The notes beneath the pieces are model-generated. The model did no database searches, was not told where the DNA came from, and saw only the letters and a program-made list of their open reading frames with translations. This document shows positions 13,040 to 64,000 of a stretch of DNA of 64,000 nt, piece after piece. Every line of letters starts with the position of its first letter. Position 1 is the stretch's first letter. The translations under genes and the position numbers were made by a program. Origin of the DNA: Raillietiella orientalis (Eukaryota); assembly GCA_036172245.1 (NCBI GenBank), contig JAYWIR010000059.1, positions 496,001 to 560,000 of the forward strand, read 5' to 3'.

Positions 13040-14065
13040 AGGAATCGGGTTTAAGGAATCGCCAGTTTGATTTCCTTCACAGCTGCCAGAGTTGCACTTG
13101 AACAAACAGTCTTTGCACCATAATACAAGGCAACGTTGGCCGAATTCCTGCTCAGCGCAAGAAGTTTAGTCTTGTGGGCACTGTCGATGCTTTCGACCAG
13201 CAGTAAGCTGAAGGCACGCTGATGAGGTGTTCCGTTTCTGCCTCTTTCCAATAAGCTGTGGAACACTGGCCTGCCAAATTGGGAACGCAATTTACCTTGG
13301 TCAGTCGATGGAACAAAGAAGCAACTGAACGACTGGAGGAGCGAAACAAGGTTCCCGTGCTCGGTATGGTCTCCGGATCTTCCGAGCCATCCCAGAGCTA
13401 TAAGATGACGACGTCCGTCGAGAAAACCACCGAAGCCGTCAGGAATGCCTTAAATCGAGTCATTCGATCTTTCTTAGGACAGAATGTGCTGCACTCTGTA
13501 AAGGATTTCGTCTTGAACTAGGCGAGAAGATGAGAATAGACGTGGAACTCAGAGTTCTTTAGAGGGGGTGCTTTCCATGTCGGGTTGACAGGGATACGAA
13601 GAGGGATGGAGGAGACCTTGGAATGGATTTTTGTTCCTTTGAAGACAGAGTCGGCAGTTGGCCACTGAAGCACGAATTTTCTTCCGGTGTCACCGCTGCA
13701 GTTTGCATTTGCCGCTCAAGCACTTTCCTCCCCACTGAACGCAAGAGCGAGTTCCCATGGTGTTCCCTCTTATTTTCCCTCTTCATCTCTTCAGCAGAGA
13801 AATGCACTTGCATATGGAAGCTGGTTTTCTGGAAGACGGCGGAAGATTCCATTATACGATGTGCGAAGAACATCGCTCTGGGAGGATATCCTAGAGCGAG
13901 TTCCTGCTCGACAAATTCCTCCGCGCTGTCCAGGTGAATTAAAGACAGTTTCCAGTGAGACGAAGAGGGGGCGGCTCGGAAGCAGGAAATTCTCCTCAGT
14001 CGCTCCTCAACGTCCATCTGCAGCCCCTCATTTGTTGCAAAAAACGCTGCTGACTTTTCCATCAT
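13040..14065 (-). mobile_element. Degenerate Jockey/CR1-group LINE reverse transcriptase
   Basis: AVTPEE...LPTLSSKEQKSIP (VTxEE..KAPGxDGIP-like), HGKHPL (GKDP-like), FSTDVV, and VALYYGAKTVCSS (ALYADD-like) occur in the expected order. Confidence 0.5.
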
Positions 14066-14523
14066 CTTCCCTCACAAGTCGAGGAAGGAAGGGAGAAAGC
14101 GAACATCAAGACGGATCTCTTTGAAGACCATGCCTTTCCATTACTGCCGCTTCCCCAATCCCGGGGAGCGTTTCGCGCTTTGAATTCCCAAGTCTTCGGA
14201 ACGGAGCTCCGAAAGCGTCGCAACGCTCCGTGGTCTTTTTGGCCAAAAGATATGGCGGCTCGTCGTGCCTTCTCCCCCTTGGGACGCGATGCTGCTTCCC
14301 ACTCAGGTCTCAGGGAGAAACCCACGCGAAGAACTGCTACCAGCATCGCATATCCTGCTCGGCAAGGGAATCTCATCTCGAAAGCCAATTTGTCTAGGAA
14401 ACAGACTCATTCCTTGCTTTCTTCGTCTTCTTCTTTGTCTTTTATTGCTTCCACCTCTGTTTTTTCGTGGCGGACTACCTCTGAAGCTCTCGTTTTGCAG
14501 AGTGCACAGAGAAGGAAACTTGG

Positions 14524-14611
14524 ATGTATGAAGTCTGCACCATTCTGATTGGGTTTTGTTTCACACTAGCTAAAAAGAATGGAAAAACTGCGCTTCTATT
14601 TTTGGGATTCG
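14524..14611 (+). CDS. dpr: Putative first coding exon of the dpr gene (signal-peptide-like MYEVCTILIGFCFTLAKKNGKTALLFLGF)
   Basis: Strong donor TTCG|GTAAGT at 14611/14612 in phase 1, matching the next exon. An upstream acceptor TTTTGCAG ends at 14500, so a further 5' UTR exon may exist. The peptide is hydrophobic but not a textbook signal peptide. Confidence 0.5.
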
Positions 14612-35499: not shown

Positions 35500-37915
35500 T
35501 GTTGTGCCAAATTCGCTAATTCTAAAAATGGACTTTTCAAAAGCTGAAAAGTTCATCAGCTATGGGTGTGAGACAACGGGGAGATGCAAGCTCGAGGGCA
35601 GGTTCATGCTGCTCACAGGGTGGCATGGCACCCCTGGAACTTTGCTGGCAGAGTTCTTGTGGTTTGTCAGCGAGGTGCGCCGTCGCCAAACACGTGTCCC
35701 CTCGAGGAATACATGCTGCTTGGTCACCATTCCCTCCCTTGCAGCGCTCTTGGAAAAAGGCGACCGGTTGCGAAGAGCTAATCGTGTCCGGTCACTCATC
35801 CATCCTCGAACAGGGATCACGGCAAGGACGTGATCCAAACGACCCTGGTCGGGGCACATTTCATTGTGCACCTTTGCCAGTGAGCTTCGCTTCGTTCGAG
35901 TTCCACTCTTGTGTGAGGTATCTGCCGTCCGTCTGATAATCGATGGAATTTCACCTCATGATCAGATTCGCGCCGATTCCTCGCTAGGAATGCTGCTTCC
36001 CCTTTCTGCACTGAGTTCCTCGCAAGCATGGCAGAGTGCATCGGACAGCTGATCAGACTCGAACACCTGTCTCAAAATCGCTCGAATCACCTTGCAGACA
36101 ACGCTTGTGTTATCGCCGAGACTTCATTGTTTTTTCGTCGACCGTCTGCCCAGAGCAGTTGTGGTCACCTTCCAGGTTTGCTTCGCAGCGGTGTGGATTA
36201 ATCTTTCGGGAAGCTTTCCGGAGGGTACACAATGGAATGTGCCTCCGAAGGATCCCTGGAGCGTGCATATGACAAAAGCACGCACCAGGGATCCTGAGAA
36301 AGTCACCGGGCACATTTCAGAAAGCTTCCCAAAGGATTAATCCACTAGTGCTGGGTGTGCCTGGTAAAGATGGAAGCTTTTCTTTAATCTGCGGAGCTCA
36401 CTGTTTCACTTCTGGCGGTAAACCAATTCCACGAACCTTCGTTCTTCTCCCCTTTTCGATTTATGGATCGTCACTGCTTTTGAGAGCATCATGGATGGGG
36501 TTCTTCAGGCTGTAAAAGCCGGGGCTCCCCAATTTCGGCCTGGACATCTTAAAAGACAAAGGTTACCCTCATTTTTATCCGTGCCACCCCTAATTTATGG
36601 AAGTTCACGTGCTGGGAGCGAACCTGTTCGATCCTCAAGCACTGCAGCCCGCTCTCCTCCCTTCTATTCAAGCCCGAAGCTTTCTATGCAGCAGCTTGCA
36701 CGAATTCATGCCGCACTTCACCGATTTGTAAGGTTCAGCAGAGTCCGGCCATCGTGCAGCATTGCTGGAAGCAGATCGTACTGCTCTTCGTTCACTGGGA
36801 ATTCCAGGAGTTTCCGGAAGAGTTGCATCTCCGAACTGTGCCAGATGCAGATCGACGGAGTCGATCATGCACCTGCTTTTGAACCGCGGTGCCTTCAACT
36901 GTGGTGGAGAACTGTGGTGGAGGCTAGCAACAGCACTTCTGCTCCAGGAGGACACTGAGTCCTAGACGTGCTGCCTCGGTTCTTCGCGTCGAGGGGCCAC
37001 TCGAGGGCGCATTTATCGCAGCCATGGGTTGCAGCCGTGCCATTGTTAGAGCCCGACTGGGGCTGGAAATCACCACGCAGCGAAGGGAGGTCACCAGGTT
37101 GGCAGCCACCTGCATCAGGACGGCTGTAAGGTGGCCTCACCTGGAAGAGGAAGCAAGGAGGAGATCACAGGCATTCACCGCCTGTTGATGGACGGCTTGG
37201 AACTGCGGATCTGGTGATCCTTGTCCTCTCCCTCCCTCTATTTTATTTTTCTTCCTAACTTCACATCCCCATTCGCTCCGTTACTGTCTTGGTGCTTTTT
37301 TTTTAATCCCGTTGAATGAGAAGCGAAACCAAATCCCTGCCCTTCTTACCCACTTTGTTTTTTTTGTTGTCCCCTTGCCCTTCACCGGTTCCGGACTTTC
37401 CGTTTTCCCGGCCTGCGTGCTAGTGGACCCTCCCCTTCGCTTTTGTAGTCGTCGGTTGGGAACTTTTGTTTCCGGGCCTGACCGAGTGAAAAACTTCCAA
37501 ACTGGAAGGAGGAGAAGGAATGAGGCCGACATCCCGGAGAACCGTTCGAGAGTGCCATCGCTGGCGGGTTTGCATGCGAAGGGCGATGGAATGGATCAAT
37601 CCGGGATGGGGGAGGTGAGAGGGAACCTTCGAGCAATCGTGCTATGCGCATAGACTGACTCCAATCCGATGATCGCTCCCACCCACTTCCAATCCATCCC
37701 TTTCCTGTTCGATGCAGACCATCGGGAATCAAGTGGAACCCCGTAAAGAAGGTCCATTCCACTCCCTATTTATTCATTCACTCACTGCTCCCCCTCCTCA
37801 CTCTCCACTCTTTCCCAGTTCTGTTCCCTGCGAAGACAGCCCCTTCGGGTCCGGGACTATGCACATCTGTCTCTCACTATTCTGTTCTGATTTATTTATT
37901 TGTCTGCAATAAATA
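35500..37915 (+). mobile_element. Degenerate Tx1/L1-clade LINE: RT fragment, zf-RVT and 3' UTR
   Basis: MDFSKA, GVRQ, PPFY and SPNCARCRSTESIMHLLLN...LW (zf-RVT CCHC-like, about 36828-36915). The 3' part is similar to copies at 37930-38505 and 39190-40035 and ends near AATAAA at about 37907. Confidence 0.65.
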
Positions 37916-37929
37916 GTCCGGCTATCTGG

Positions 37930-38505
37930 GATGGGAAGGCGATTCATCCCGAGCGCTTTTTTCCTTAAAGAAGATAACAGAAAGTAGGAGCAGAGGAGAG
38001 CGGAAGTGCACGTGGGAGGGAACACCGACTCACAGATCGGCCATGTGGAGAGTCCGAGAAAGGAGAACAAACAAATGTAAAAAGATGGAGGGGGAGTCTC
38101 CTCTGCAGCCACCGCGAGATGCGGGTGATCTCCGTGGAGACTTCCGGTAAGTAGGGACGCCTCGCTGCAGTCCTCGTGGAGACGCCCTCTATACGGGTGA
38201 ATTCCTTTTGTTGCCACGACCTTTAGAGGTGGTGATGCAGGACGAGGCAAAGCGTTCGACCCTGGCTGCTGCAACCCTTGCCACAGCACTGCCTGCCCTG
38301 AGGGCAAGCGACGACAGCTGTCAACAGGCGCGGTGGGAGTTTTCCTGCACCATGGTGGGAAAGACGCAACTACTTGGCAGCTAGAAGACGCGCGAGTTGG
38401 TAGATGCTCCTCCACCGATTCGCTCACTGTGGCGGCGCATCTACCAATTCGCGCATCTGGTGACTCACGCAGCTCTTTCACTCTGCTCCGCTGCACCCGA
38501 TGGTA
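37930..38505 (-). mobile_element. Inverted 3' fragment of the same Tx1-like family
   Basis: ESPDARIGRCAATVSESVEEHL is a zf-RVT remnant. The reverse complement shares GGGTTGCAGC, ATCACCAC and GGAGATCAC blocks in order with 37020-37175. Confidence 0.55.
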
Positions 38506-38510
38506 CGTAC

Positions 38511-39183
38511 AATTCTTCAAGATAGGGGCTACCTCACGAAAGGACCACCCTATGAATGCAGGAAGTCTGTTTTCCTTTCACGCCTGGTAGCGATCCTCCA
38601 AGGGAACCTTCATTCTGGTTGTCTCCGAAGGGAACCTCGAAGGGGTCCGCTCCATTTTTTCTTCTCCGAAGGGAACCCCCAAGGAACTCCGGATAGGATC
38701 CGCTATTAGGAATTTCTTCTCCGGAGGGAACCCGCAAAGGGACCGCTCCTAGTTTCCCCCTCCTCTAAAGAGAACTCCGAAGGGAAGCTTCCGAAATTTC
38801 TCAGAAGGGCGCTCCCCGAAGGGAGTGGCACGCTTCTCTGCACGCTGGAGAGGTACTGCATGGTAGGAGACGGAGGATCCATCCACGATGAGGGAGGGAC
38901 GGCTCCTTTGCACAACCGGAGGGGAACTACCACTCCGGTTGATTCTGTCTCCTGGTAGGACCCCGGAGGGTCGACTCCCAATCCCGGCGACTCATCAAGG
39001 GTATGCGGTTTGAACCGCTACGAGTGCCGCATCTGAAGATGGGTCAACCAGCGTCATCTTGCAAAGGGACTCGAACCCACGAAGCACCTCGCGTTCTCGG
39101 CATCTATCCTTCCCCGGGTGAGATTCGAACCCACGACGCTTGGTGCCACGCACCGAAGTTGTGACCACGTAATTCCGACGCGG
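38511..39183 (-). mobile_element. tRNA-derived SINE-like element, copy 1
   Basis: Minus-strand head CCGCGTCGG...GCGTCGTGGGTTCGAATCTCAC with B-boxes at 39122-39130 and 39068-39076; internal tandem units of about 40 bp; colinear similarity with 51279-51996. Confidence 0.7.
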
Positions 39184-39189
39184 ATATCA

Positions 39190-40035
39190 GCGCTCCTGCA
39201 CCAGGAGGACATCGCCCGCAGCCTGCAGCAGCGGTTCTTTGTGCCAGGAGCACTTTCGACGGGAGGTGATAGCAAGCATCGGTTGCATCCGTGCCATCGT
39301 CACGGCCCGTCATGCCTTGCAGATGCAGACGTAGCGAAAGGAGGCCACAGGGGCCGCAGCACCGTCTACATGAAGACGGCTGCAATGACAGTGGCCTCAC
39401 CTGCAAGTGGAAGTCAAGATGGAAATTGCCAGCATCCAGTGCAGGTTCGGAAGTGAATGAACGACGGACACCGATGACCCTTGTCCTCAACTCCCTTTAT
39501 TTCTTTTTATTTATCGCTCTCTTTCGCTTCGTACTTCTCCCGGTTTGCATATTTTCATTCCGATGTATACGTAGCAAAACCAGAGACCCTTGCCGTATCC
39601 CCCGGATTTCTTCACTTTTGTTTGTTGCTCTTCTTCCCCTCCCTCTCGTTCCGGAACTGGCGGACATCCTGACCTGGATGTCTTCAGTTGGAAACCAACG
39701 TATTCCCGACTGGGTTCTCGATGTTTTCCCCGGTGTGACCGGGTGGAAAATGCAAGCAAAGCTCCAGTGCAATGGCGGGCCGTCGTGATGGCGCGGAAAA
39801 TAAGGAATGTGCCGCCGTCACTCTCTCGAGGTCCGTCAGAAGGAGTTCATCTTTTCCTGCCTCATCACAGCAGCCCGATTCGTCCCTGAACCTGCTGACA
39901 CCTCCGACTCTCGTGAGCAGCCCTACGTCGACACCGGTGAAGGCACTCCAGTTCTTTCCCTCCGGTTCCTGTCCAACGTAATTGTCGGAGAAGTCCACTG
40001 AGCGGCCGATCCCACCTTTAATGTATTTATTCATC
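39190..40035 (+). mobile_element. 3' fragment of the same Tx1-like family
   Basis: Shares CCAGGAGGACA, CGGTTCTT, GGTTGCAnCCGTGCCAT, GACGGCTG, GTGGCCTCACCTG, CCTTGTCCTC and TGACCGnGTGnAAA blocks in order with 36940-37500. Confidence 0.65.
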
Positions 40036-40329
40036 TATCTCCCTGCCCTCCTCATCCTTCAATGTTCCCTCCTTATTCGCGTCCTTAGTGAGGTTCGGAT
40101 CCTCCCGTTTGGCGCTAGGGCAGATGCTGCTGACCCTTCGGCAGCCTTGTCGAACCAGTACGCCGATGCGCACATTGGCCAAGGAGATGAAGCTGCCACC
40201 CGGTGAAGAAGAAACCAAGGCTGGACTGCCAACAAAACACACGAAGTACCATATCAGTGACCTTCAGCGTCCTGGAGCTTCCGATGAGAGAAGACTCAGA
40301 ACGAACGCAACAGAATCCCCCTAGCGAAA

Positions 40330-42470
40330 AAAAGAAAAGTGCTGACGGCCGGGAACCAGAAACTGCTGCAACGTGAGGCACTCTGGGATCTGGAGAAGAA
40401 CCACCGGAAGAACGGAGGATTTCCTACCCGCTTTCTCCCCCCCCCCCCCCCAGCGGTCATCGGATTCGAGAGCGCTGCCTGCTTCATCACGTCGCCTGCC
40501 CTCCTCTGGAATCCTCTGAGGCGTCCGGAGGAGTTCGTTCACCAAGGAGTTTATTCGCTTTCTAACGCATGAGTGGCGATGCATGACATCACTCCGCCAG
40601 CGAGACGCGAGAGTCCCGAAAGCGTGCGCCCATCTCCAGTTCGCGCGATGCGTTTCCCTGGAAGATTCGTCATATGCCAGGAGCAAGGAAGAAGCTGTAT
40701 TTCAAATGTCTGAGCAGCCCAGCTCCCCTCTGCTCTCCCAGGGAATGGGGGGAAGGAGAGAGAGAGAAAAAAAAAGGAATCTCTTCCTTTTTTTTTTTTA
40801 ATGAAAAATGGAAATCGGGAACATGGCTGGGAGGCTGACAGTAAGTCTATCCGCCTGCCTCCGGCACTACTGGTCTTCCCAATGTTCTCGATGGGAGCAG
40901 CTCGAGGGCGGACAAATCGAGACACTAAAAACCACAGTGGCTAGGTTCCCTCTACAAGAGAGACGCAGGATGAAGAGGACCTTTTCATCAGGCGCCTCCG
41001 CTCTAGAAAGGAGAAGGAAAGGGATGGAAAGCCCCCCCAAAAATAAGAAAGAAACAAAGCTTAGCTCATTAACGAAAGAAATCGAAAAGGAGTTCCTGAT
41101 GGCGTTCCACTGTGTGGTCCACGGCCCCCACTTCCGTCGAGGGGGAGAAGATGCACGGCACTTCCTGAACGACAGATGGAAAGGCCCGCCACGAACTTCC
41201 CTCACCACTGTCTCTCCTTTCCAAGTCAGCCGCATGATGTTCCTCCTCTGGGACCTTCAAAACCCTTGCAGGATGGAGCTGGGGCAGAGAGGAAGGGGAG
41301 AGAATGGAAAATATCTTCGAGAGGTGAAACTTTCGGCTGGTCACAGGAAGCTGGAATCGCTGCGAGGGCATGGATAAATCCCAGGAACTAGACAGCGCCT
41401 CCCTCCTCACGAAGAAGCGGATGTCTCCCTCGCTTGCAACCATTCCGAGAGATTCCTGAGAGAAGGAAGCCCGCGTGCCTTTTCCCGAGTGGTTAGATCA
41501 CGCTAGAAAGCCTCTCTCCTCGGAAACCGTAAGAAAGAAGCTATCCTACGAGATCCATGCCTGGAGAGCAGTTCCGATCACTTTTCAAGGCAACCCGGAT
41601 CTTTTGCCAACCCTCATACCATCATAGTTACCTCAGAGAAGCTCTCCCGGGAGAAACGTCCCTTCCCTCCAGGAAAGGAGCTTCCTTCCAAGCCTTTCCT
41701 GTAAGGCGGAAGGAGAGTCCTCTGGGAAATGCCGCTCTCGAAGACTTCCTGGAACCAGGGATTGTTCTCGGGAATCATTAATCCGTGGTCTGGTCGTTCA
41801 CAAAGAGACGCGAAGGCACCGGAGTCCTGGATGTTCTGCGCACGACGTCCATGAGGTTTCAAGGAGCCAAGTGTCTTCTGCTGGGCCATCTGTCCCCTAG
41901 GCGCCAGCCATCGTCACTTCTTGGTCTTCCAGAGTGCTTTCTCTGCTTGATGGGAACACAGGAGTACGTTACAGGCCACGAAAAGTTCATGACCATCAAT
42001 TCTGTCAGTGCTTCGAACGTCGCTTCAGTGGAGTTTCCTAACTTTTCCCATAAGCATCGGTGGAGACCTGATGACCCATAGCTCTCTTAACACCTAGGTG
42101 GCTGATAACTCACAAACTTGCCGGAAATAATTTTTTAGCTCCCTCGTTTCATTCTTCCAGATCCTTCCGCAGCTCTCCACGGCAGCTTCCATTGAGAGGA
42201 GCCGCTCGGTCCCCCCAAAATTGTGTCAGGAGCTCCATTCTGCCGACAGACATTGTCGAAGGGATGCAGGTCAGCTCTTTCGGAAGGCAAAAGGCGGGAG
42301 AGAACTGGATCTGCGACGGGAAGTCGCCTTTCCTCCTTGTTGCACGTCTGCTGTTCCTTTCTTCTCTCCTGCCGCCTTCTTTCTCTCTTATCTCCTCCCT
42401 CGCCTCAGGTAGCGCGCGTTCATTCCGGAAACCTCTTACTTCTTATCGGTTCACCCAGGTTGAAGTCTGG
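40330..42470 (-). mobile_element. Degenerate Tx1/L1-clade LINE ORF2
   Basis: GSSGLHRCLWEKLG (PGxDGLxxEFYxxFWxxLG-like), VNDQT..FPRTI, GGLSIP and THRANWRWAH (DLxWRxxH-like) occur in order. Confidence 0.55.
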
Positions 42471-42569: not shown

Positions 42570-43290
42570 GTACATCAGGAAGACAGTAGGAGATATTCAG
42601 TAGGAGATGCAGATTCCGCGAAATTCGAAGATGAATTCTTCGTCCTTCTCAAAGAGAGGGAAGCGTCGTGCCTTTCTTCGGTGAGTAGGTCCATCACATC
42701 TGCCCGTGAACCCCACGCTGGAAACTGCGACGAATAGCCTGAGATAATGGTTCTTTGATTCGCACTGTTCGTCAAGTATCTCACCAGGCTGATGAGGATG
42801 CTTGAGAGCAGGCCGTTTTGGCGGGAAATAAGAGCGCTCCTAAAGGATTTACTGATGCTGACCGAATGGCATCAGTTCCATGTGCTATTCTCCTCCACTT
42901 CCTGATCCCGAGACGAGAAAAGGTAACGAATGTGTCTATTTCTCTTTTACCTTTTCCGCGAGCAATGTAGGCGGACAGAGACGGAAAGTCCAAGTCCTGC
43001 TAGAAATCACCTCTATCCAACAAATGTGGAGCTGGACCCTCACTAGGGCTCTAGACTTGTCAAAAAAGGAAATCTCAAAGATTCAGAATGTAACGAACAA
43101 GTCATTTAGCGTGAATCTAATGTGCCCGGCTTGAGTGAGTTGATGAAATCGCATGCCGGAGAAAGGTAAGTCCACAGTCCTTACCGGTGGACTACCGACA
43201 AACCGTGGTGTAGAAAAAATCAAGGAAGTCGGTGTTGAAGTTGCGTGCTTTGCATCATCATGAGTTCTTGCAAAAAGACTAGGAAACATA
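42570..43290 (-). mobile_element. Degenerate hAT (Buster/Spin-like) transposase fragment
   Basis: FPSLF..DD...LIFSTPRFV, LTQAGHIRFTLNDLF, GTDA and AWGSRADVMDL (RWLSRGxVL-like) occur in the expected order. Confidence 0.4.
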
Positions 43291-43529
43291 GGGCAGATGC
43301 AATCTTAATAGAAGGAATGGAAACATGTAGGTCCAGTTAGCAATCCTCAAGCTATGCAGAGGGATTACCTTACTTTAGGAATGAAAAAATTCCAGTGTGC
43401 TTGTGTGTGCGTTTTTTAAAAACAAAAAAACACAAAAAACCTGCGTTCCAGACAGAGACCGAGGTTCGCAGGGTGCCAAGAAACTCACATCTTTTGGCCA
43501 TCAAATGCATGCCATGCCACAACTACCTA

Positions 43530-44430
43530 CCAATGTTTATTGAAGATGGAATAGGAATAGGTGAAATGGTAGTGAGTCATCTAGAAGTGGGAGCAAGCGT
43601 GTGCCAAACAGGTGCGTTGTAAGTCTGCACGGATGAAGCAGTTGCTCATAAAAATTTTCAATTGCTCATAAAACCAGCTAAGCGTAAGTTTTTCTGTTAC
43701 TCCAGTAAGCCCCATAGCCAACAGAGGAAATGATACTTTGTAAAGAGGCAAAGAGAAGTACTTGATAAATACCAAGAAAGAAGTCTCAAAAGAATACGGA
43801 AGCTCGAGGTAGGAAAACACTGCTCTGGAGCTTCGAGAAGAGCAGTAATTGCCGGAGATACTGAACTGGTATCTTGAATGGCCTGCCAAAGTATTGGCAT
43901 GGTTGAGGAAGAAAAGTCTGTGAAAGAGGTAGAGGATATGGTGTTTCAACAGGGAGGCAAAGCCTGAAGGTGCGGTGTGTGGTTCCTTGTTTTCTGGAAG
44001 AAAGGAAAGGCATCGTCAAGTTTCGGGGTTCGGAAGTTAAGTGTGGTGAGCTTGTGGTCCCAAGTCATCAGGACAGATCACAGGATTCATCCAATGGTTG
44101 ATTCTCAACTCTTGGAGTACGGTCTCGAACGTCGAATTTCGTCCTCTTGCTCGAAGTTCAGCACTGTTGCTGAAATGCTGGAGCAGAATCAAGAGGAATG
44201 GGAATGCGAGGATAGATAAACAAAGCGAGATAGCATCTGCCATGGGGAGCTCGTAGATTGATGACGATGACAGGGAAAGCTGAATCAGAATTAGGCGATT
44301 GTTTCGGATGAAATCCGTCAGATAGAAATGTAATGGAGGATTGCAGGAAGATCCGGGCACAGATTATGGGAAAGAAGAATAGCAAACCGGATGGCATTCT
44401 AAACTTTACACGCGCAACTAGCACCTAGAA
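43530..44430 (-). mobile_element. Degenerate I-group LINE with RNase H remnant
   Basis: DTSSVSPAITALLEA (SVFxAELxAIxxAL-like), KVSFPLLAMGLTGVTEKL (WIPxHxGIxGNExAD-like) and HF*MTHYH (GHxxLTH-like). Confidence 0.45.
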
Positions 44431-51278: not shown

Positions 51279-51996
51279 AATTCTCCAAGATAGGGGGTAC
51301 CCCGGAAGGGGTTCGCCCTATGAATCTAGGAGGGACTCGGAGTCCGTTCCTTTCACTCCTGGGGAGGGATCCCCGGAAATAGAGATCACCTCCACCCTGG
51401 TTGTCTCCGAAGGGGAATCCAGAAGGGAATCTTACTTATTCTCTCCGAAGGACCCCCGGGGGGTCGGCTCCATTCTTTCTTCTCTGAAGGGAACCCGGAA
51501 GGGATCTAATCCTGGAATTTCTTCTCTGGAGGGATCCCCCGCAAGGGATTCGCTCCTGTTTTTACTCCTCTGAAGGGAACCCAGAAGGAACGCTTCCGAA
51601 ATTCAGAAGGACGCAGCTTCCCCGAAGGGATCGGCTCGCGTATCTGCACTCTCTGGAGAGATGGTGGCGACACAGCTACTCCATCAGTACGACGCGGAGG
51701 GTCGTACTGATGGAGGGTCTCCTCCTTCACAACCTGTGGGAAAACTCCCCACTCCGTGATTCCTGGAAGGACCTGGAGGTCGACTACCATTTGTCCCGGC
51801 CCTCATCGGGGCCATCCGGTTTCAACCGCTACCAGTGCCGCACCCGGATGAATGTAGGCCAACCAGCGTCATCTCGTGGGGTGAACTCGAAACCCGTGGG
51901 GTGAGCGCGCTGCGTCGATTCCTTTCGGAGTATTCGAACCCACGACGCATGGTGCCATGCGTGGAGACCACCGTAATCACACGGCCTCCGACGCGG
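51279..51996 (-). mobile_element. tRNA-derived SINE-like element, copy 2
   Basis: Same ends as copy 1 (AATTCTnCAAGATAGGGG...; ...CCGACGCGG), B-box at 51931-51939 and the same internal tandem units. Confidence 0.7.
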
Positions 51997-54614
51997 GCTT
52001 ATTCTACAGTAGCCGAACATGTAATCTGCATTGTACGAATCTACGAACCCTGCGGGTTGTACATAGATTGTGTGATAGTATTTGTTAAAGATATGAAATG
52101 CATCTTAAAACTTAGAACAGCTAAAATATGTATTACTTTTTACTTGAAAGCGAAAGGAAAAACTGAAACTGCTTATTTTCCGTGCAATTTGAAGTAGGGA
52201 AAAAAAAAGGATTTTGAAGTTTAGTCAGAATTCTACGGTTTCGGCTCCATCGTTCTCGTTGTTCAAAAATGTTTCTTTTCGTGTCACTTCATCCACAACG
52301 AACAAAATGGAATTCAAACCACTGGAACTATGTGCTCCTATTCTTCTCAAGAGTACCTGAACTGACACCTCCATTGATATTTATCTTCAGAGCCGTACGG
52401 GTCTGATTTACCATGTTATCCGAGGACGATTGCCATGTTTTTCGTCTCTTCAACACGAATCCACGTTGCTGCTGTACTTCTTGCTCGCAGCCCCATAGGT
52501 TCGTAGGCAAGAGTCTCCCTGTTTTTCCTAGGAAAGCAAAGCAAGGAATGAATATGTGTATCATGAATCTTTGATTTTGCTCCTGAAATCTGAATTCAGC
52601 TGCGTACTATATCATGTGTCGAAACACGCCTTTCAGGACTGGCAGAATGAGGAACTTGGGTCTGCGGATGCAATTAAATGGGAAGCATGCTCGTCCTCTC
52701 ATTGGTCAACCTTGTGGAATCCAATTTTCCTAAAAAGCGAAGCTCCAGATTCAGCAACAGTTGCTCACAATGTGTTTTTTGCCCATTTTTTTTCTCTTTT
52801 CAGGTTTTCATTAGTTAATTACATTTGCAAATTGTTCCTCCATCTGCGTTTGCTGTGCTTCGATGTTAGTAGGATTCACATAGCAACCGAATACAGTTCT
52901 CCAGTGCCTATTGTGGCTTTGAAAAGATGGATGAACTTATCATGTTCGTTTCCGGATTATCATATGCTGTTCGGTAGTGTTGAGTCAACAGTGATCACTC
53001 CAGAGCAAGATATACGAAGATATACGACAACAAATCTATTGTAATTGTTCTTTTATAAGATTGGCATCCGAAAGTTCGGGGCACTAAAATCGTTTTTACG
53101 ACCTCTAATTTGCTTCCGGGAAAGGAGAAAGGAAGAACAGCTTCCAATTTTGATCTATTCCTTCTACTTTCCAAACTCAAGAGGCATTTTCCATTTTATT
53201 CCCTGAGTATTCTCAGTTAGGAACAGGTCTGGACTGTGTTTATGCTCGGAAATTCAATAATCTCTCATTGGTAAAGGAAAACATGTGTTTACTCGACTGC
53301 ACTGTGGATCCTTGATCCAGCAAACAGAGTTATTATCACTAAATAAATTAAAGCGAAAAATAAATAAATATATAGCGAAGCGGAACGAAGGAACAGTTCC
53401 AAATGCCTTGCCGGCATGCTTCCAAAATGTTTCCCTATTGCAAGTGCGGCTTTTCATCCTGGTTGTTTTCGAATTATCATTTTAGTTACTCTTAAAAAGT
53501 ATTTTCGAAGAATTTTCCATCTCGACACGGTCTGCGGGAATTTCAGAAATTATTCTATGGAAGCCACTCTGAGATGTACCGTTGACGAGTTGCACACTGC
53601 TCCGTACGAAGGCTTTCTTTCTGCAGCTCACTTCAAGTTCCCATAGCTGCTCGGATTCAAAGTACAGAAAAATGACAAATTTTAAGGGACACATTACCAT
53701 AAAGTGAATGTGGCTGGCAATAGAAATGTCCTTATGGATGAGGGCTAAATTTTTTGTCACTGTTAGGGAAGATCCCACGATCTTTTCATCTTCGCTTTCC
53801 AGATCTCCTTACTTAATAATCAAGGACCGAACAAATACCGAGCAGGAACTATGTAGATCAATTAGGGGAAAATCGCTTTTGTATGAATACATTCTATTCA
53901 CAATTGTTCTGCTATCTACAGAATATGTAATTATCGTATACACTGCATCCGCACTCCTTTAGTCTCTCCATAGTTCTCCTCTCCCTTCAGTCTCCCCAAT
54001 CCTGCAAATTTAAGAGTGAAATTTTGAACGAAGAGAAATTGAAACAGTTTTGAATGTAGAAGAATCATCTATTTTTTCATTTTCTATGCTTAAGGAGAAG
54101 TTTGACTGAACGATGTCATTTGCGTTTTCAAGTGCGTCAATAGTGCATGGTTAGACTTATTGAATTTAAAGCTTTCTGTTTCCATGGACTCGACTACCCG
54201 ACACCGACAGTTTCATAGGGGACGGTTCCACGTATATTATTAACGTCGTGAATTATCATTATCAGTAAACTACCGTTATCAGAGTGCACCGTGACCATTT
54301 AGCTGGAGTGAGTCCGAATTGGAAAGAGCTGAATTGCAGCGATTTGTCAGCTGCATGTTGCTGTAATCGAGAAGACATTCCAACTTGGTTTATCTGCATG
54401 GCATGCTTGTCGAATTAAACGATTCTAGTATAGACAACAGAAGACTCAACAGTGGCGAGAGCATGTGGATGTACTCAGAGTAGCGATCCTTGAGACGTTG
54501 GATGTTTTAAACCAAGAACCGCACCTCTGGAAACCATCTGCTACTGGAACTCTTAAGAAGGTTTGTCGCAAGCCCTCTGCCCCTCAGTTGTATAGAATTT
54601 AAGTGGCCTAAGCA

Positions 54615-54773
54615 ATGAATAAAAGGACGTTATTAAAATTAAGCAATGGATTAAAGGTTGAACTACCCATATTAAATGGAACAATAGGTCCTGATGTATT
54701 AAATATGAAGGATTTGTACAAGACAACAGGGCTATTTACTTATGATCCATGGATCGTTTCCGCAGCTCCGTGA
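54615..54773 (+). pseudogene. gltA: Truncated bacterial (Wolbachia/Anaplasmataceae-like) citrate synthase N-terminus; probable endosymbiont-to-nucleus transfer
   Basis: MNKRTLLKLSNGLKVELPILNGTIGPDVLNMKDLYKTTGLFTYDPWIVSAAP* matches the type II citrate synthase N-terminus (ELPILxGTxGPDV...GxFTYDPGFxSTA). About 30% GC by manual count (41/135 over 54615-54749). Confidence 0.88.
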
Positions 54774-56257
54774 TTTTGTCGCACTTTGTCGCACAAGCAG
54801 TCGTCGAAGAGGCGAGGGAGTCCACTTCACCTCGAAGGCCATACAGGCTCGTTCTCCCCTTCCGAGACTCCTTCTGGCTTCTGTAGTAGACGGAGCTGTA
54901 GCTTCGGTTCAGAAATACTTGGCTCTCCGCTAGAAGATCCGCCTGCTTATCAGCTCCTTTGCAGGGTATCAAGCTTCTGAAGTTTCTCAACAAAATCAGC
55001 GACGGAAGAAACAAGCTTGTCAGGGATCAGGAACTATTGGTGAACGATTGGAATTAATGTTGATTATCCGGAACACCATTCTGCCCTGTGATTTCCTTTA
55101 TTCCTTCCAGCTCCTAAATGAAAAGAAATGACTCGGAGTTTTTTCCATCAAATGAGAAAGGACTTGATGATGAAAAGCTGAAGATCGACCAGTTTCGCAG
55201 CTACGATTATCTAGAAAATTTAGAGTTGCTCTCATTGTTCGTCCTCACGCTTGCCCCTATAGATGCGTTCTGCGCAACGTGGAGACGAAAGCATCTTCTC
55301 CAAGCGGCTTTCCACGTGCCACTAAGGTTCTGGGTTTTCCTGAGACGAGCGAGCTTTTCGTAGTTTTACAACCTTCCTTTTTTTGTGAGTTGATGCAGTT
55401 TCCTCACACTTTTCGCCCCTGGAGCAAGCATCTTCCCGGATGGGAGGCGTGTCCCCCCCTGTAAAATAGGGTAAAGGAAGCGAGGAGGAAATGGAAATGA
55501 GAATCTTTCTCCTCCAAATGCAGACGTCGTAGTCAGCGCAGCCGGAGATCGGAGCTTCGAGTGGGAACGCTGAAATCTCTTCTGGTCTTGAATTTAGACA
55601 CACGGTTCTACAGTCACGACAACACGGTTCAGTGAAAGTTACGTGATCTCAGTTCTTCGATAGATAAGAGGATTCATGCATCGGAGTAGGTGAAGTTTTC
55701 AGTAAACCAACTTTCCCAACTGTTGGGCTCCCCGTAGAAGAACACCACACCCTCTCAACTCCAGAACTCAACATCTTACCGTACTCTTGATGTTTTCCTG
55801 GCTCCTCTTAAACTTTGTGCACTTTTTGAGATCTTCTTCGAAAGAGGAAAACTGAGAGAATTCGTTGTGGCTGTGGATACAACAGTGATTGCTTTGGTGC
55901 CCATGCTGGATTCAGTTCATTAAATACTTCTCAGACTACCATCATCTGGAGACAAAAGTAGAACGGAAAGGGAATCTTGAAAATGAAAAGGAGTGTGCTT
56001 TCAATCTTTCGTCTACACAAATTTACCTGAAGTGCTATTGTTTTTCCATGCAAAAATACGGGCCATGCTTTTGGCTGTCTTCAGGATTGCATCAAAGGTT
56101 TCTAAGATTACAAACTAAGAAGTTTGCTACTGCCACGAGAACGCTGATCTTATTTGTGACTGCGTCAGTATTCTTGTGGTTGCCGTTTTCTGAACTGATG
56201 AGTAAGGGAAGTAAATATAACTTTCCGATGCATGGCTCGAGAGTAATATGATGAAAA

Positions 56258-57600: not shown

Positions 57601-59399
57601 GTATCGAAAGGCGAGCACGGCAGATCATTTAAAGAAATGCTAGATGCTTATCGCGCAAAGGCATTTTCTAGTAGCTCATGTCACCATTGAGAGAATAATT
57701 ACTGCAATAAGGTATGATATATGCTCATAAATAAGATTCTTTATTGGTATCCTGTTGGGAGAATGTAGCCATGAAAAATGAAAGCTCTGGTCATATAACG
57801 TTGAGAGAAAGTGAATCAGTAGGATCTTCTGTCCTGAAACAAACATGCGATACTCTCTTATGTTTGATCCAAGAACAAATCCTGAAAAACTGGGGTGTTA
57901 TAACTCGAATGAAACAAATGACATTTGTGACAGCGAGTTTCTGCTTCCATCTTGCAAACTTTGGTTACTCGGGGCTTCCTACCGGATTTCGGCTTGAGTT
58001 TAGTTGTCAAGGTATCAATAGAGGTTCTTAGCGGCTCTTCTGAGTATCATGAATTCTTGAGGACGTTCGCTGAATGCAGCGAAATAACTCAAAACAAATG
58101 AGCATGAAACCAAATTTTGTTCCCTTCTCAGTTCTGTTTGTCGAGTACCCAACTGTACATTCTTGAGCCAACGAGATACCTTCAACTTGTAAAATATTTT
58201 AAGCCATCAGCTTTTGCTCTATGTTCTCTTTTTCTCAACCTTTCCTCAACATCCGGCAAATTCGAGTAACACAAAAGGACTACAGGGTTGGGTGACGGTT
58301 TTGAGGTTGCACAATTTGGGTTTCCGTAAGCGGCAGCCCGGATAAACAAGCCGTTAACCGAACGTAAGAAACGACAGCATTCGAAAAAGCCCTGCCAAAG
58401 AAAAGTGTGAAATGATGCATAGTTTCTTCTCTGGGGACAGCTTGAGCACTAAACTCATCCATGTTTCCTGCACATTCCGGAGCAAAGGTACGGGGAGAGG
58501 CTGTTTCCAACAAGTGTCGATACCTCTCTCTTAGCTCTTTCTATGTTCTTCGTTTCCAGGAAACGAGATTGCTGTCCATTAGAAGGTCCCTGGAAATTGG
58601 TTCTGGTCTCTACAGGAAACTGACCTGTCCGTTTTCTTGGATTTTTGGCCGTCTTTCTTCTCATTCTCATGCCATCTTCATATGTCCGACCTCACTCCAA
58701 AAAATTCGGACCACTCAAAAGATAGCAGTTTCGAAAAAAGGTGAAAGTCAAGTTACAGTCAACTAACTGTAATAGTTAAGATTGAATGAAAAAAATGTAA
58801 CGTCGATATTTCTTTCCTTTTATTTTCGTTTGACCACTCTTACGTAATAATGCACCCTTGCATGGACAGTTTGGAAATCAATAAATAGACAAATTCATCC
58901 TATGCATAACCTCTTCTTCCAAAGATCTTTCTTTCATCTTGAATCCTCGCACCGTTCTTCATTCAGTCGACTCATTATGTACGAACTCCGGCGACTGCAG
59001 TTTACCCATTTATTTGTTCCTTGTCATTGCAGTCTGCATACCAGAAAGCAAAAGAGTTGAACTCATTATTCCGTTCTGAGTCTTTGCTCCCTTTTTGATT
59101 GAGGGTCATCATTACCGTCTGCCGCAATGTGGACACTCTTTATTGGGAAGGACCTGCCAGCATATGCAAAGAAAAAAATACCAAAGCCAAACTCCGCTTT
59201 GGTTCCATTCGTTGCGCGTACAGAAGAAACACAGAACTCTCGAATTCTCGCTGAAGGGAAAATGTGCTTCCCAATTCCGTAACTGCTTTCTATTCAGTTG
59301 CCATGCACTTGAGGCTTGGGACGCTTCTTGGAGCACAGCAATAGCACCAATCAAAACACAGCTTCAGCGCCAAGTCCTCCGAGCAGCATCCAACGAAAG

Positions 59400-62300
59400 T
59401 GAGTCGAAAGACCAGCCAGACGGAAAATCTTCCTTCATTTTGTCGCTGAGCAGTCCACCGGCTCAAGGCAGTCCACCAGACGGCGGGACTCGGCTCCCAT
59501 TCCTAGCATCCTGGAAGCGACGTCGGACTGCCTCTCTACGCAAGTCCCAAGTCGCCGAGGGTGCAGGAAGGCAGCCATTCGGAATTTAAGAGAGTGGAGG
59601 AGGCATCGATGAGAAAGGGAAAATTCGGACCAGAAGTAGCCGCAACGAGCTGATCTGTTCCGAGTAGCGTGTTCCCCTCCATCATCCCTTCGAAACTACT
59701 CGGAAGAGTAATGATTGCTCAGCAACATCCAGGCACACAAGACGGCATCCCCATTCGATGCTCGCAACCCAGAGAACAGTCCCTACGGAAAGCGCAGGTC
59801 GCAGAAGGGATGCTCCCATCATCACCCATGCACGCAGTCAATCCGCATGCACAAGACCGGGAAGCGTTCGTTTCGCTCCAACTGCCCCAAACGGAATCTT
59901 CGGCGACCTGGAAAAACAGAGGGAGGACGCCGTTTCCAGGAAACCGACCGATTTTCGACTGACAGCGCGGAAAGGCATCTTCGCTCGATCCTGGACAGCA
60001 AGGCGACTCACCACTGAATTGTGCAAGTGCTCGGCTTATTCATTCTAGAAAATTCTACAGACCAATGCGGGACGGACGAGCCACATCCCGTCGCCCATTC
60101 GTCGGACCGCTCATCCAGGATGCACTCTTGGAGGTTCGGGGAAGTGCTGAATCCAGGACTGCCACAGACCGCCAGTGCAACGCTCTTCCGGGAGAATCCG
60201 ACGAAAACTCCAGAAGGGTGCAAGCCAAGTCCCCCTCCTTTCGGAAGGAAAGCAATGCTCTTCCGATAGAAGGGTGCTCCCATTGCAAGGCGACCCAAGA
60301 GAAAAGCAAGGAACGAAGGGTCGAGCCGAAGATGCAGCTGAGAAGATATCTTTGGTGGAAGAACGAACTTAGAAGGAGACGCCAACGTTCGGGGAAGTCT
60401 TGCTGCAGCCAAGCGCACGCCGAGGAGGCGGCAACAAGCCGGAAGGGAGCAAAGCAGCTACGTCAACCGCAGATACCCTGGACGCGTGCCGAGGGCGCGC
60501 GAGCGCACCTGCGATCGAAGGCCAAGACGAAATGAGGGTTGCACGCGACAAGAAGAGACTGCCAACACGCGGACGACCAAAGTTTCGACGACGGTTCGCT
60601 CGTAGACAAGCAACGCCACCGCATCCTTGGGTTCAGCGGAGACGCCACTTCCGGAAGCATCGAGCGGGGGCTCGACATCGCGCAAAAGCGCCCGCAGCTT
60701 CACGCCATCCGCATGGAGGTCAGCATTCTCCGCTACGTAAAGGGGTCCCTGTGGGTCTGCCACCCGAAAAGACGGATACTGGCCCGTTCGGCCCCCTCGC
60801 GACGAAGGGACACCAGTGCGCCCTCCTCTCCGATGCGCACCCGAAAGCCCGCTCAGGCGCGCCGACCGCCGCGCACCTCAAGCATCTGCTCTGGCCACGC
60901 GCCCCGAGCAACCGCCCTCCGCTTGCCGGCCCAGCATAGCGCCAACCTGCCACGTTCCTAAGACTTCGCTGGTTCTGCATGAATTCTCTCCTCCTCATGC
61001 CGTGCTGAAGCATTCCTCGCGACTCGGTAGCGCGTCGACGATTTCGGGAGGCATAGGAGGGATCGCGACGCAGAGCTGCCTCAGCCTAGTCAGCAGGGCG
61101 CGACCGGGGCGGCCACCATCCGCGATCGCCTCGCCAAGCAGCTCGTTGCTTCCGCGCCATCAGCGCCCCGGTGCGCGTTACGGGCTCCAGAAAAGCTACT
61201 GGAAAGGCAGCTTTCGGCCCCCAAGGCGCTTACGGCTCATGACGAACGCAGCGCAACGCGGCCGGGATGGTGTCCTCGGATTTTCGGAACATCCCCGGAA
61301 TAAGGCAACGCACGCCGCGACGCCTCCTGAGGCGCCACAGCAAGGCACCAGGCACTCGGCCTGCAGGGGAGACCAGCAGCACGTGTACCAGGATGCAACC
61401 CGCAACAAGCGTTCCCGATGCAGACTCCTGGAAATGCGCGCGCGCTGGACGACGAACACGGGCAGAGGGACAGCGGGAACACTTCCGCCTCTCCCACGTC
61501 GAGGAGCGACGTCAGCCGGTGGAGGAAGAAACCTGGACCAGTAGTGGCTTCCAGAAGTGGTCACGAAGTGGTGGTTCCTCCTCGCGCTGCGGATCCTCCG
61601 ACCTCCTACCGCCCGGAATTCCACGCGTGTCGAGTCTCCCACTCGCGAAGACCATCGTATCCGCAAGTGGAGAAATTCCGGGAAGACTGCAGTGCTGGGC
61701 GGTAGGTCGCTCAGCGTAGCGCACGGAGCAACGGGGGCTCCGCGGGAATCCGCCACATTCGCGAGCGCCCTTCTCCGGGAACATCCCCGCTGCCCCACGC
61801 GGCCATCAGTGCGGAAACACCCACTCCTCCCGCGCGCACATCGCCATCCCAGGTGGGCATCCCTTCCGCAGGCGTGCACGTCCAGGAGACACGACCGACG
61901 TCCTCTTCTCGAAGACGTACGCCTCCAATCGGAGGAGGCGCTCACAACCGCGGAAACCCCTGTTGGTCCCCCGGATCTCGCCTCTGCTGCCGGATGCGCA
62001 TCTTCCGCTTGGAAGGGCAGGTTGCAGCCACGCCTTCGGCGATCCAACGCTCCACGAGCCGCCATGCGACGACTTGCGTCCGCTCGACTTCCCGGTCGAA
62101 CCGCACATCCGCACGGAGGCCGTGCTGCCCTTGCCGACATCCGCGCAAGCGGGACGTGGGTGTTCCGCGAGCGTCTGGGACCCTTCGGCAAGTCGTGGCA
62201 ACAAGTTGCTACGACGACGGCAGCAGTCCGGAGAAGGGTCCGTGTGTCCTTCCCTTGCCGTCCAAGAGATCGTTCCGGCTGCAGGGCCAGGCCTGGAGCG

Positions 62301-63900
62301 ACCTTGGGGTCGACGGGAACGCTGACCGGCGCAGGCGCACGCTCAGTGTCGCTCCTCCGTCGGCACCTTGTTTCCGGTGCGCCTGCAGTGGCGCGCATAG
62401 CTCATCATCCCCAAACTGACGCTGCTGGTTGGCTGCGCCAGGCCCTGCGATCCGCCCTCGCGGCTCAGCCTGCAATCCGGATGGGCCCTGACCCGGCTTC
62501 GCCGCCTCCGTCGCCTGCGAACCGATTCCCCGAGGGCTCCTCCAGTCCAGGTGGCCACGCGTGGCAATATTCGCTCGCCGTGCCTCGCGTCACGACGCGT
62601 CTACGAGGCTCCGCCGACTTCATTCTGGCCGTCGTCAATGCGATCAACTCCGTCCAGGAGTCGGAAACGCCCAAGGCCTAGCCACGCGCTTCCCGGAGTT
62701 TCTCGCATTGGGACGCTGAGCCTGCAACAAATCAAATCTTTGCTGCCGCATTGACGGTGCGCTTGACTCCCTGACCTGCAGCGCCGCCCTGCCGCTTCTG
62801 TCGGGTGGGGCCGATCTCCAAAATTTTCCGGAGTCCGGGCAATCCATTCTGCCCGCTCTTGTTCCGCCCAGAAGAGGGGCGCCGTCCGAGGTCAAGATAG
62901 CCGCTGCTGTGAGAGGATGCACCGAAAGCGAGCGAGGTGGCGCTCGCTCGAGAACGCCATCCAGGATCTTCGGCGACGTGAGAAGTTCCATGGCAACGCC
63001 CCGCGACAAGAATGCCAGAGAGTCCCCTCCCTCCATTCCCACAGGAACCCACAGACGGACGGACGTGAACGCAAACTGCGGGCGGGCGCCCTCATTTCCG
63101 ACGTCGCTATCGCTGCGTGCAATTGGCCACCAGTTTGCGCGCTCACTCGGAATGAGGACTTTCGTTGGCGCTTCCGGAGACGCAGCGCTTCGGTGCCCAT
63201 CAGCAGCAGCCTCGAGGAGCCGCCAACTGAGTCATCGCGCCGTCCCATTCCATATCCGCTGCAGCTGCAACTCTTTCGCGCGAACTATTCGATCCTTTCT
63301 TCGTCGGGGAGCGGCTGCGCGGATGTCTCGACGTCTGCCACACCGCTGCCCGTGGGCCAGATTCGCCCGTGCAGTCGCCTCCTCCCGCTGAGGACGCCGG
63401 GCACGCGAGCATCCGCCGCTCGTCCCGACGAATCCACTCGTCCTCACGGGACGAAAGCGGCGGATGTCCACGCACCGCTCCCGGGTCCCTGGGCTTTCGA
63501 TCCACCGTGGAGGGAGCGTGCATCGACCTGCGCGATGCGCGGACCAAGGTCTTCTCTCGCGCTCGAGTAAGAAAACGGTCGTTTTCTGCGACAACCGTTC
63601 CCACTACCAGAAGAACGCAGCGGAATGCTCCCGTGCCTCGCGCGCGCGCTTCGCTTGCCAAATTCCGGGTGGGCAGGTGACTCTCCCGATTCGGTTTCGC
63701 TGCCTGAGAGCGCTCAGGAAAGCTGGTCGCCTCCGCAGCTTGCCCTTTGGCCGCGCGCCGTGCGCACGCCTTGAGGCTCCATCGATTCCTCCCGTCTCCA
63801 CTGCGCTTCCCGATGCACACGGCTCCACAAAGATTGGATGCTCACTGATGGGGCGGATGCAATTCGAGCTCCGCTTTTCGCCCACTTCCGCCGTGGGAAC
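59400..63900 (+). mobile_element. Long GC-rich degenerate Tx1/L1-clade LINE (possible ORF1 remnant plus frameshifted ORF2)
   Basis: WFCMNSLL (60970; WKLNxSLL-like), VVPPRAADPPTSYRP (D at 61592), RRARPGDTTDVLF (GVRQGxPLSPxLF-like), ASARL, SWQQV, SLLRRHLV, LAVPRVTTRL and DFRWRF occur in the order expected for Tx1 ORF2. Confidence 0.65.
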
Positions 63901-64000
63901 GCGCCTCGTTTCCTCGCGTCCGCCTTGCACGGGCGAGAAGAGATTTGGACGAGAACGCGCGGGCCTCTCGCAGGTCCGAAGAGGACGCAGCCAACCACCG

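Follow-up and report, generated by a model that had tools for sequence, protein, structure and literature searches.

The window (the whole 64-kb stretch of DNA analysed here) contains a 185-bp segment of Wolbachia DNA at positions 54588..54772 (+ strand), comprising 27 bp of the spacer upstream of gltA and the first 158 bp of the gene, as delimited by blastn. We interpret this segment, with a probability of roughly 0.85, as a nuclear Wolbachia transfer (NUWT) that persists as a non-functional fossil; its nuclear location is inferred from one assembly.

Identity and origin of the gltA segment

The segment carries a residual 52-codon ORF (54615..54773, + strand) which runs from ATG to TGA and corresponds to GltA residues 1–52, the TGA lying at the position of Cys53 in Wolbachia. 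The initial annotation had reported this ORF, with the same translation, inside a span of 54571–54774, and had recognised in it the N-terminal part of a bacterial type II citrate synthase. Profile and structure searches uphold the assignment: NCBIfam PRK05614 matches the ORF with an E-value of 2.1e-8 (residues 4–51 aligning to profile positions 5–53 of 430) and TIGR01798 with 2.5e-8, and each of the nine PDB matches at E≤10 is a citrate synthase, the top one being 4xgh_A (E 1.8e-9). A Pfam search of the 52-codon ORF gave no match; it is not long enough to match PF00285. With 33.1 bits, the ORF falls below the curated cut-offs for a full-length type II citrate synthase (505 and 485.15 for PRK05614 and TIGR01798, respectively).

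Sequence comparison establishes that the segment originates from Wolbachia, as had been proposed from the resemblance of the ORF to Wolbachia GltA. The best 39 of 48 matches in the protein search are Wolbachia GltA or unnamed proteins (E 6e-18 to 1e-12; 64–83% identity; 409–430 residues long, with a few shorter or fused); 20 of these 39 carry the name Wolbachia and none carries that of another bacterium. The next group, from Ancylobacter, is far weaker (E 2e-5). Of 400 genomes scored in the order to which genome G001 belongs, 22 have matches at 59–80% identity with E≤4e-15, the remainder reaching at most 61% with E≥2e-13. Residues 1–52 align without gaps to the N-termini of 17 Wolbachia GltA proteins (65–81% identity). 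At the DNA level, identity is 87.6% to L087/G351, 87.0% to L084/G284 and 85.4% to L086/G277, all in ungapped blastn alignments, and 73–88% across 18 Wolbachia-like genomes, the non-coding spacer included. A donor among the Rickettsiales other than Wolbachia was rejected, as identity outside the 22 Wolbachia-like genomes is at most 61% and the spacer has no DNA match there. The ends of the match are both sharp and are identical in most of the 22 loci; homology may continue for a few bases beyond 54772, to about 54785, with an indel.

Both the DNA tree and the protein tree place the piece within Wolbachia. In the former it adjoins the clade of G284, G351 and G277 with ultrafast bootstrap (UFBoot) values of 60–73; in the latter it lies outside a clade of wVulC, wBemisia and 'group B' (UFBoot 97), the inner nodes (64–72) giving no further resolution. 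Placement in a supergroup, which the initial annotation had considered feasible, is weak from these trees.

Decay of the gltA segment

The gltA piece is dead and truncated, has evolved under relaxed constraint and is not a live bacterial gene. When compared with Wolbachia GltA, a type II, hexameric-type citrate synthase, it retains 52 of about 413–416 residues, and the catalytic domain is absent; since only the first 12% or so of the gene was captured, no enzyme can be made. Eight base changes are private to the piece relative to 22 sequences, of which one lies upstream of the start codon, five are at codon position 1, none at position 2 and two at position 3. All seven coding changes are nonsynonymous, giving A5T, I31M, G46W, F47I (two bases), T50A and S52P, and codon 53 has in addition gone from TGT to TGA. 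Of the residues replaced, six in all, four (G46, F47, T50 and S52) are invariant or nearly so across the 17 aligned proteins. The codons that differ from the nearest genome comprise 4 synonymous and 12 nonsynonymous, against ratios of 15:3, 12:5, 8:8 and 7:7 in pairs of Wolbachia sequences, although these counts, like those by codon position, are small numbers taken from 185 bp alone.

All 52 codons are free of stops and indels, which extends the claim of the initial annotation that the first 45 are intact. This openness is, however, no more than chance would give: in 20,000 simulated random decays, with 8–19 substitutions starting from the nearest Wolbachia sequence, the frame remained open in 36–63% of cases. 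The open frame is therefore uninformative and provides no evidence of youth.

The retained start codon and open frame could nonetheless be read as signs of exaptation, in which the ATG and the 52-codon frame would be expressed as a host micro-protein or exon. The 5′ edge is acceptor-like (a pyrimidine tract in the adjoining filler, followed by CAG) and a donor-like GTGA follows codon 52. Against this stand the frequency with which neutral decay leaves the frame open, the loss of conserved residues with an excess of nonsynonymous changes, and the failure to find neighbouring exons on either strand. Moreover, each of the three frames meets a stop in the segment's initial 30 bases, so the segment cannot be an internal coding exon. 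We regard exaptation as highly improbable.

Surrounding DNA and junctions

Within the assembly, the gltA segment is physically contiguous with non-bacterial sequence on both sides. The flanks yielded no bacterial matches beyond the segment, either by blastn against the Wolbachia-like genomes or by tblastx, in agreement with the earlier description of a fragment embedded in host DNA. The same description gave a GC content of about 30% in a richer setting; the setting is indeed richer (44.0% and 46.0% in the two 500-bp flanks; 45.9% for the whole window), but the insert itself has 34.6%.

The surrounding DNA is animal and probably arthropod, to judge from the best PDB (structural) match of one Ig exon, Drosophila Dpr4, and from language-model neighbours, the nearest Atlas clusters being arthropod; these serve as leads only. 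Pfam was positive for 3 of the 480 stop-to-stop ORFs of at least 60 residues in the whole window, and the host-type genes detected are confined to Ig V-set and Ig exons and an EZH-like fragment. Word-based protein searches with the V-set and EZH-like ORFs returned no match at E≤0.001, and Rfam gave none within the window at gathering thresholds. A location of the insert in an intron of a live EZH gene was considered and is unsupported, as a scan of short minus-strand ORFs (28–59 residues, from 44 kb on; 150 of 153, the two lowest and the last being left out) showed no further EZH exons; its matches were two of sub-threshold noise, to YxzE and DUF7753. The heavily decayed transposable elements said to surround the insert were not borne out: transposon domains are absent from all 480 ORFs of at least 60 residues and from the 150 shorter ones.

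A direct repeat of 9–14 bp flanks the insert. Its left copy, TTTGTCGCA-AGC, occupies 54562..54573 (+ strand), as located by comparison of the flanks, and is separated from the Wolbachia segment by 14 bp of pyrimidine-rich filler (54574..54587, + strand) that aligns to neither Wolbachia nor the right flank. On the right, TTTGTCGCAC occurs twice in tandem, the second copy being extended by AAGC (54775..54798, + strand). The 9-mer of the repeat has four copies in the window, three of which are here and at 54562. A 9-mer shared across a 185-bp gap was found at 1.7% of 20,000 random sites, a figure to be read with the fact that the repeat was spotted post hoc. No terminal inverted repeats of note were seen at the insert, and self-comparison of the window revealed two repeat pairs, neither near the insert, and no other copy of its flanks.

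The repeat and filler fit capture at a repaired chromosome break. We propose that an ancestor of the host, probably an arthropod, harboured Wolbachia in its germ line and that a DNA fragment passed from there to the nucleus, where it would have been ligated into a break by end joining. The 14 bp of filler on the left would be a product of this joining, as would the short target duplication, TTTGTCGCA(C)AAGC, on both sides; capture would have been limited to the beginning of gltA and the 27 bp of spacer, and the piece would have drifted neutrally since insertion.

The same repeat, at 9–14 bp, could equally be the target-site duplication of a mobile unit, in which case the piece would be a secondary copy, brought to this site by a transposon of the host or by segmental duplication from a larger, primary Wolbachia insert located elsewhere; NUWTs are reported to have duplicated in Brugia malayi and Drosophila ananassae (PMC3849323, PMC4299567). 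However, none of the 630 scanned ORFs has a transposon domain, inverted termini are lacking at the insert and its flanks are single-copy in the window, so that we consider secondary movement unlikely. Another reading takes the source to be RNA: the reverse transcriptase of a host retroelement would have made a copy from the 5′ portion of a Wolbachia mRNA. The points cited are the start of the segment, which lies 27 bp ahead of the gltA ATG and is plausible as a transcript 5′ end, and the 12–14-bp target-site-like duplication. We give an origin from RNA very little credence; if true, it would mean that a bacterial transcript was retro-copied into an animal genome.

Chimeric joins are a recognised concern where hosts carry symbionts, and at 185 bp the piece is about the length of one short read, as might arise if reads from live Wolbachia or a contaminant had been misjoined into a host contig. 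That the piece is such an assembly artefact is nevertheless very unlikely. Its divergence from each of the 22 sampled Wolbachia-like genomes is at least 12.4%, and the stop and the exclusively nonsynonymous private changes in conserved residues are not what a live gltA would show; in addition, both sides are non-bacterial and bear the flanking direct repeat, and a second, heavily decayed Wolbachia piece is present on the same contig.

An older Wolbachia fossil in the window

This second fossil derives from an NMO/FabK-like gene, an identity read from L114:2234-3280 (PF03060, TIGR03151), and lies 10.6 kb from the gltA piece. It consists of two blocks on the + strand, at 43043..43398 (69–71% blastn identity to five genomes) and 43529..43953 (69–72%), which are split by a 130-bp window-specific insertion (43399..43528) at a point where the Wolbachia sequence is contiguous. 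Stops and frameshifts are evident in tblastn alignments, and identity of the second block is flat across 17 genomes (69.7–74.3%). Its two flanks have no 7-mer in common that would indicate a target duplication.

Private branch lengths are about 0.09–0.12 substitutions per site for the gltA piece and at least 0.26 for the second fossil, from which the former is the younger of the two, but is not demonstrably recent. The 'fairly recent' transfer of the initial annotation therefore holds in this relative sense only, and of the present or past infection that it proposed, the insert would record a past one. Judged by generally quoted invertebrate neutral rates, the insertion may date back some millions to tens of millions of years, an uncalibrated estimate. 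Two fossils that clearly differ in age lie within 11.5 kb, which may reflect two separate Wolbachia infections, with replacement of one symbiont by another.

When the 64-kb window was compared by blastn with five Wolbachia-like genomes, the gltA piece, the region 43043–43953 and one 30-bp match (E 0.007) were all that was found, and tblastx against four 20-kb gltA neighbourhoods detected no neighbouring Wolbachia genes; these two comparisons define the sensitivity of the search for further fossils.

Comparison with other transfers and significance

Wolbachia 'genomic fossils' have been described in Dictyocaulus viviparus (Koutsovoulos et al. 2014, PMC4046930), as have NUWTs in filarial nematodes (Vancaester et al.). 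The present case is alike in that a short Wolbachia fragment is co-assembled with host sequence, is truncated, carries inactivating changes and evolves neutrally, and in that more than one fragment, of unequal preservation, occurs per region and can mark past infection. The accounts of those inserts include read-coverage evidence, whereas the piece described here is known from an assembly. The GC content also differs, at 45.9% in the window against the 34.5% given for D. viviparus (PMC4046930), and the host is not one of the nematodes of those studies, the window looking arthropod-like. A 2025 NUWT screen applied an HMM threshold of E≤1e-30 (PMC12693587); the 185-bp piece is far below it, and NUWT censuses therefore probably undercount pieces this short. 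The inserts of Drosophila ananassae and Brugia malayi share the donor genus and the direction of transfer, but are reported to be large, recent, multi-copy and partly transcribed (PMC4299567, PMC3849323), unlike the single 185-bp scrap with about 9–12% private divergence found here. The transfer of gltA is genuine but of an ordinary, well-known kind, and because Wolbachia DNA is common in animal genomes it adds an example rather than a principle.

NUMTs and NUPTs are stray organelle DNA captured at chromosome breaks by end joining, often with filler and short duplications, and decay neutrally thereafter. The insert resembles them in its apparent break capture with filler and a short duplication, but its donor is a facultative bacterial symbiont.

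As gltA is a marker for the detection and typing of Wolbachia, a copy of the gene's 5′ end in the nuclear genome, 83–88% identical to live strains, can give rise to false-positive infection calls, whether based on PCR or on reads, and to odd 'strains'. Taken together, the two fossils indicate that Wolbachia was present in the host lineage on two distinguishable occasions, or over a long period, a history that would be of more interest were the host Wolbachia-free today.

Wolbachia origin of the gltA segment

The initial annotation had described a 52-codon open reading frame as the N-terminus of a bacterial type II citrate synthase. The frame is present with the translation quoted there (54615..54773, forward strand, ATG to TGA), and the proposed identity is borne out by two NCBIfam models, PRK05614 (positions 5–53 of 430 aligned with ORF residues 4–51; E 2.1e-8) and TIGR01798 (E 2.5e-8), and by the PDB, in which all nine matches at E ≤ 10 are citrate synthases; a Pfam search with the ORF returned no match. 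Each model scores 33 bits, where the cut-offs for the whole protein are 505 and 485, respectively, and the ORF is in functional terms no member of the citrate synthase family.

A protein search with the ORF gave 48 matches at E ≤ 0.001 from 54 candidates. The top 39 (64–83% identity; E 5.6e-18 to 1.4e-12) comprise 20 named as Wolbachia citrate synthase, 17 unnamed proteins, a Callosobruchus chinensis 'unnamed protein product' and a metaclust entry; the other nine are from Ancylobacter or Starkeya (E 2.3e-5 or worse). When 400 genomes sampled from the order of the genome with handle G001 were scored, 336 matched, and one more genome yielded no score; 22 of the 400, all Wolbachia-like, align over residues 1–51 at 59–80% identity (E ≤ 4e-15), and the next-best at 53–61% (E ≥ 2e-13).

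At the DNA level, the match to Wolbachia-like loci is ungapped over 185 bp (54588–54772, forward strand). The closest loci are L087 in genome G351 (87.6%), L084 in G284 (87.0%) and L086 in G277 (85.4%), followed by 15 others at 72–83% and four divergent loci at 57–73%. Leftward of 54588, the window has nothing in common with the bacterial loci; the right limit lies at 54772 or, as read from the alignment, perhaps ~12 bases further with an indel. The match opens with 27 bp of the non-coding spacer that precedes the gltA start codon; this points to transferred Wolbachia DNA and excludes convergence as well as an anciently shared gene. The fragment had thus been correctly recognised as Wolbachia gltA. 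Its contrast in GC content with the flanks also holds (34.6%, against 44.0% and 46.0% in the 500-bp flanks and 45.9% in the window), although the earlier figure of about 30% was slightly low.

We put at roughly 0.85 the probability that the segment is a nuclear Wolbachia transfer (NUWT): a stray fragment of symbiont DNA would have entered at a chromosome break in the germ line and been captured on its repair, would have been non-functional from the outset, and would have decayed neutrally thereafter.

Decay of the gltA segment

Eight bases of the segment are private relative to the 22 Wolbachia-like sequences: one immediately ahead of the ATG, five at codon position 1, none at position 2 and two at position 3. 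Every one of the seven coding changes is nonsynonymous (A5T, I31M, G46W, F47I (two bases), T50A and S52P), with G46, F47, T50 and S52 invariant or nearly so among 17 aligned proteins; codon 53 is TGA in the window and TGT in every Wolbachia compared. The codons differing from the nearest genome are 4 synonymous and 12 nonsynonymous, whereas these 52 codons give ratios of 15:3, 12:5, 8:8 and 7:7 in four Wolbachia-to-Wolbachia pairs. The lineage of the window's copy is therefore under relaxed constraint. Separately, among the 22 Wolbachia-like genomes, G387 (locus L105) has six private bases of its own within this 185-bp stretch. Every one falls at codon position 1 or 2, which is unusual for a live gene, although the frame stays open over 413 codons.

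Exaptation of the segment as a small ORF or exon is very improbable, the least likely of the rival readings; its one point in favour is the open frame, which is explicable by chance. In simulated decay (20,000 trials) that introduced 8, 14 or 19 random substitutions into the nearest Wolbachia sequence, all 52 codons stayed free of stops in 63%, 46% and 36% of cases, respectively. The open frame is evidence for neither youth nor function.

A second Wolbachia-derived fossil

Searched by blastn in four portions against five Wolbachia-like genomes, the entire window yielded the gltA segment, a second segment and one 30-bp match (E 0.007). The second segment, on the forward strand, comprises two blocks (43043–43398 and 43529–43953; 69–72% identity) interrupted by a 130-bp foreign insertion (43399–43528) that is not present in Wolbachia. 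It spans ~0.9 kb, carries many stops and frameshifts, and corresponds in G284 to a gene for an NMO-family, FabK-like protein (PF03060, E 1.3e-49; TIGR03151, E 1.1e-80, under its cut-off). As the gltA and NMO genes lie hundreds of kilobases apart in Wolbachia-like genomes, the two segments are either separate captures or remnants of one scrambled insert. When the window was compared by tblastx with the 20-kb regions around gltA in two genomes, and with the surroundings of the NMO gene, no additional pieces emerged. In four of 15 further Wolbachia-like genomes searched (L123 in G333, L125 in G375, L127 in G254 and L129 in G363), the NMO/FabK-like gene itself has one or two in-frame TAA codons near its 3′ end, which suggests variable C-terminal length or possible pseudogenisation in some strains.

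Insertion site

The window contains the 9-mer TTTGTCGCA four times (0.64 expected), and three of the copies bracket the gltA insert, one at 54562 and a tandem pair at 54775 and 54785. The left copy reads TTTGTCGCA-AGC and the second right copy TTTGTCGCACAAGC; these two look like a 12–14-bp target duplication. The left copy is separated from the Wolbachia DNA by 14 pyrimidine-rich filler bases (54574–54587) with no match. Filler together with a short duplication is what remains when a staggered break is repaired by end joining. A 9-mer is common to both sides of a 185-bp gap at 1.7% of 20,000 random window sites, so the direct repeat is suggestive of insertion and not proof of it; the flanks of the NMO segment retain no such repeat.

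That the junctions are an assembly chimera is highly improbable: the decay pattern, the non-bacterial flanks and the second fossil all speak against it, and mis-assembly would not create the filler and short duplication. Slightly less improbable, albeit still very unlikely, is a secondary copy relocated to this site by a host element or duplication.

Phylogenetic placement and age

On a backbone of full-length gltA DNA, the segment adjoins the clade of G284, G351 and G277 (UFBoot 60–73). In a tree of 36 Wolbachia-type proteins, named and unnamed, with an Ancylobacter outgroup, it falls in a clade (UFBoot 97) with Wolbachia of filarial hosts, wCfeJ, a 'Wolbachia sp.' MAG protein and wMeromenopon, separate from the clade of wVulC, wBemisia and a 'group B'-labelled protein; inner nodes have values of 64–72. 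The NMO segment is equidistant (69.7–74.3% identity) from all 17 genomes compared and cannot be placed phylogenetically.

For both segments, G284 and G369 served as the reference pair; the two genomes are 13–14% apart in each segment. The private branch of the gltA segment is 0.085–0.096 substitutions per site with no window-specific indels, against 0.263 for the NMO segment with 55 deleted and 138 inserted alignment columns specific to the window; terminal branches in maximum-likelihood trees are 0.12 and 0.84, respectively. The gltA segment is clearly, and by a wide margin, the younger. Because part of its branch belongs to an unsampled donor lineage, its decay is bracketed between about 0.04 (8 private bases in 185) and 0.12, which at commonly quoted invertebrate neutral rates is an uncalibrated millions to tens of millions of years. 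The description 'fairly recent' therefore stands relative to the NMO segment, but not in the sense of a fresh transfer.

Surrounding host sequence

Elsewhere, the window resembles eukaryotic DNA that is poor in genes. Among all 480 stop-to-stop ORFs of at least 60 aa, three have Pfam matches at E ≤ 0.001: an Ig V-set ORF (26887–27210, forward; E 8.7e-6, at the Pfam cut-off), an Ig/I-set ORF (33419–33799, forward; E 1e-7) and an Ezh2_MCSS ORF (58283–58540, reverse; E 1.4e-7). In the PDB, the Ig/I-set ORF matches Drosophila Dpr4 best (E 4.2e-9); the Atlas clusters closest to this ORF consist of Ig proteins from arthropods, at a score of 0.96 that serves as no more than a lead. The two Ig ORFs, on the same strand with 6 kb between them, are probably exons of one Dpr-like two-Ig-domain gene and provide the best clue to an arthropod host. 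The EZH-like ORF aligns with residues about 240–300 of human EZH1/EZH2, with two cysteines of the human sequences replaced by phenylalanine and alanine; no additional EZH exons were found among 150 of the 153 small minus-strand ORFs, and this isolated ORF could be another relic or a strongly diverged exon. Protein searches with the V-set and EZH-like ORFs gave no match at E ≤ 0.001. The 'decayed TEs' reported nearby are not confirmed, as no transposon domain was found in any scanned ORF of the window.

Three GC-rich islands (13000–19000, 36000–42000 and 59000–64000; 50–65% GC against about 40% elsewhere) have long overlapping frames on both strands without a Pfam match. Two of them share ~0.5-kb, 70%-identical stretches with other parts of the window (38600–39059 with 51423–51874; 36931–37249 with 39188–39508).

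Relation to known nuclear Wolbachia transfers

NUWTs are already well described. Those of Dictyocaulus viviparus are presented as short, disabled fragments assembled together with host genes (PMC4046930), and filarial nematodes are credited with thousands of fragments of mixed supergroup origin, which served there for inferring lost and replaced infections (PMC12693587); large duplicated inserts are recorded for Drosophila ananassae and Brugia malayi (PMC4299567, PMC3849323). The gltA segment, known here from its sequence, has the sequence-level features of this class and is a real yet ordinary Wolbachia fossil. It would gain significance if the host lineage proves to be without known Wolbachia.
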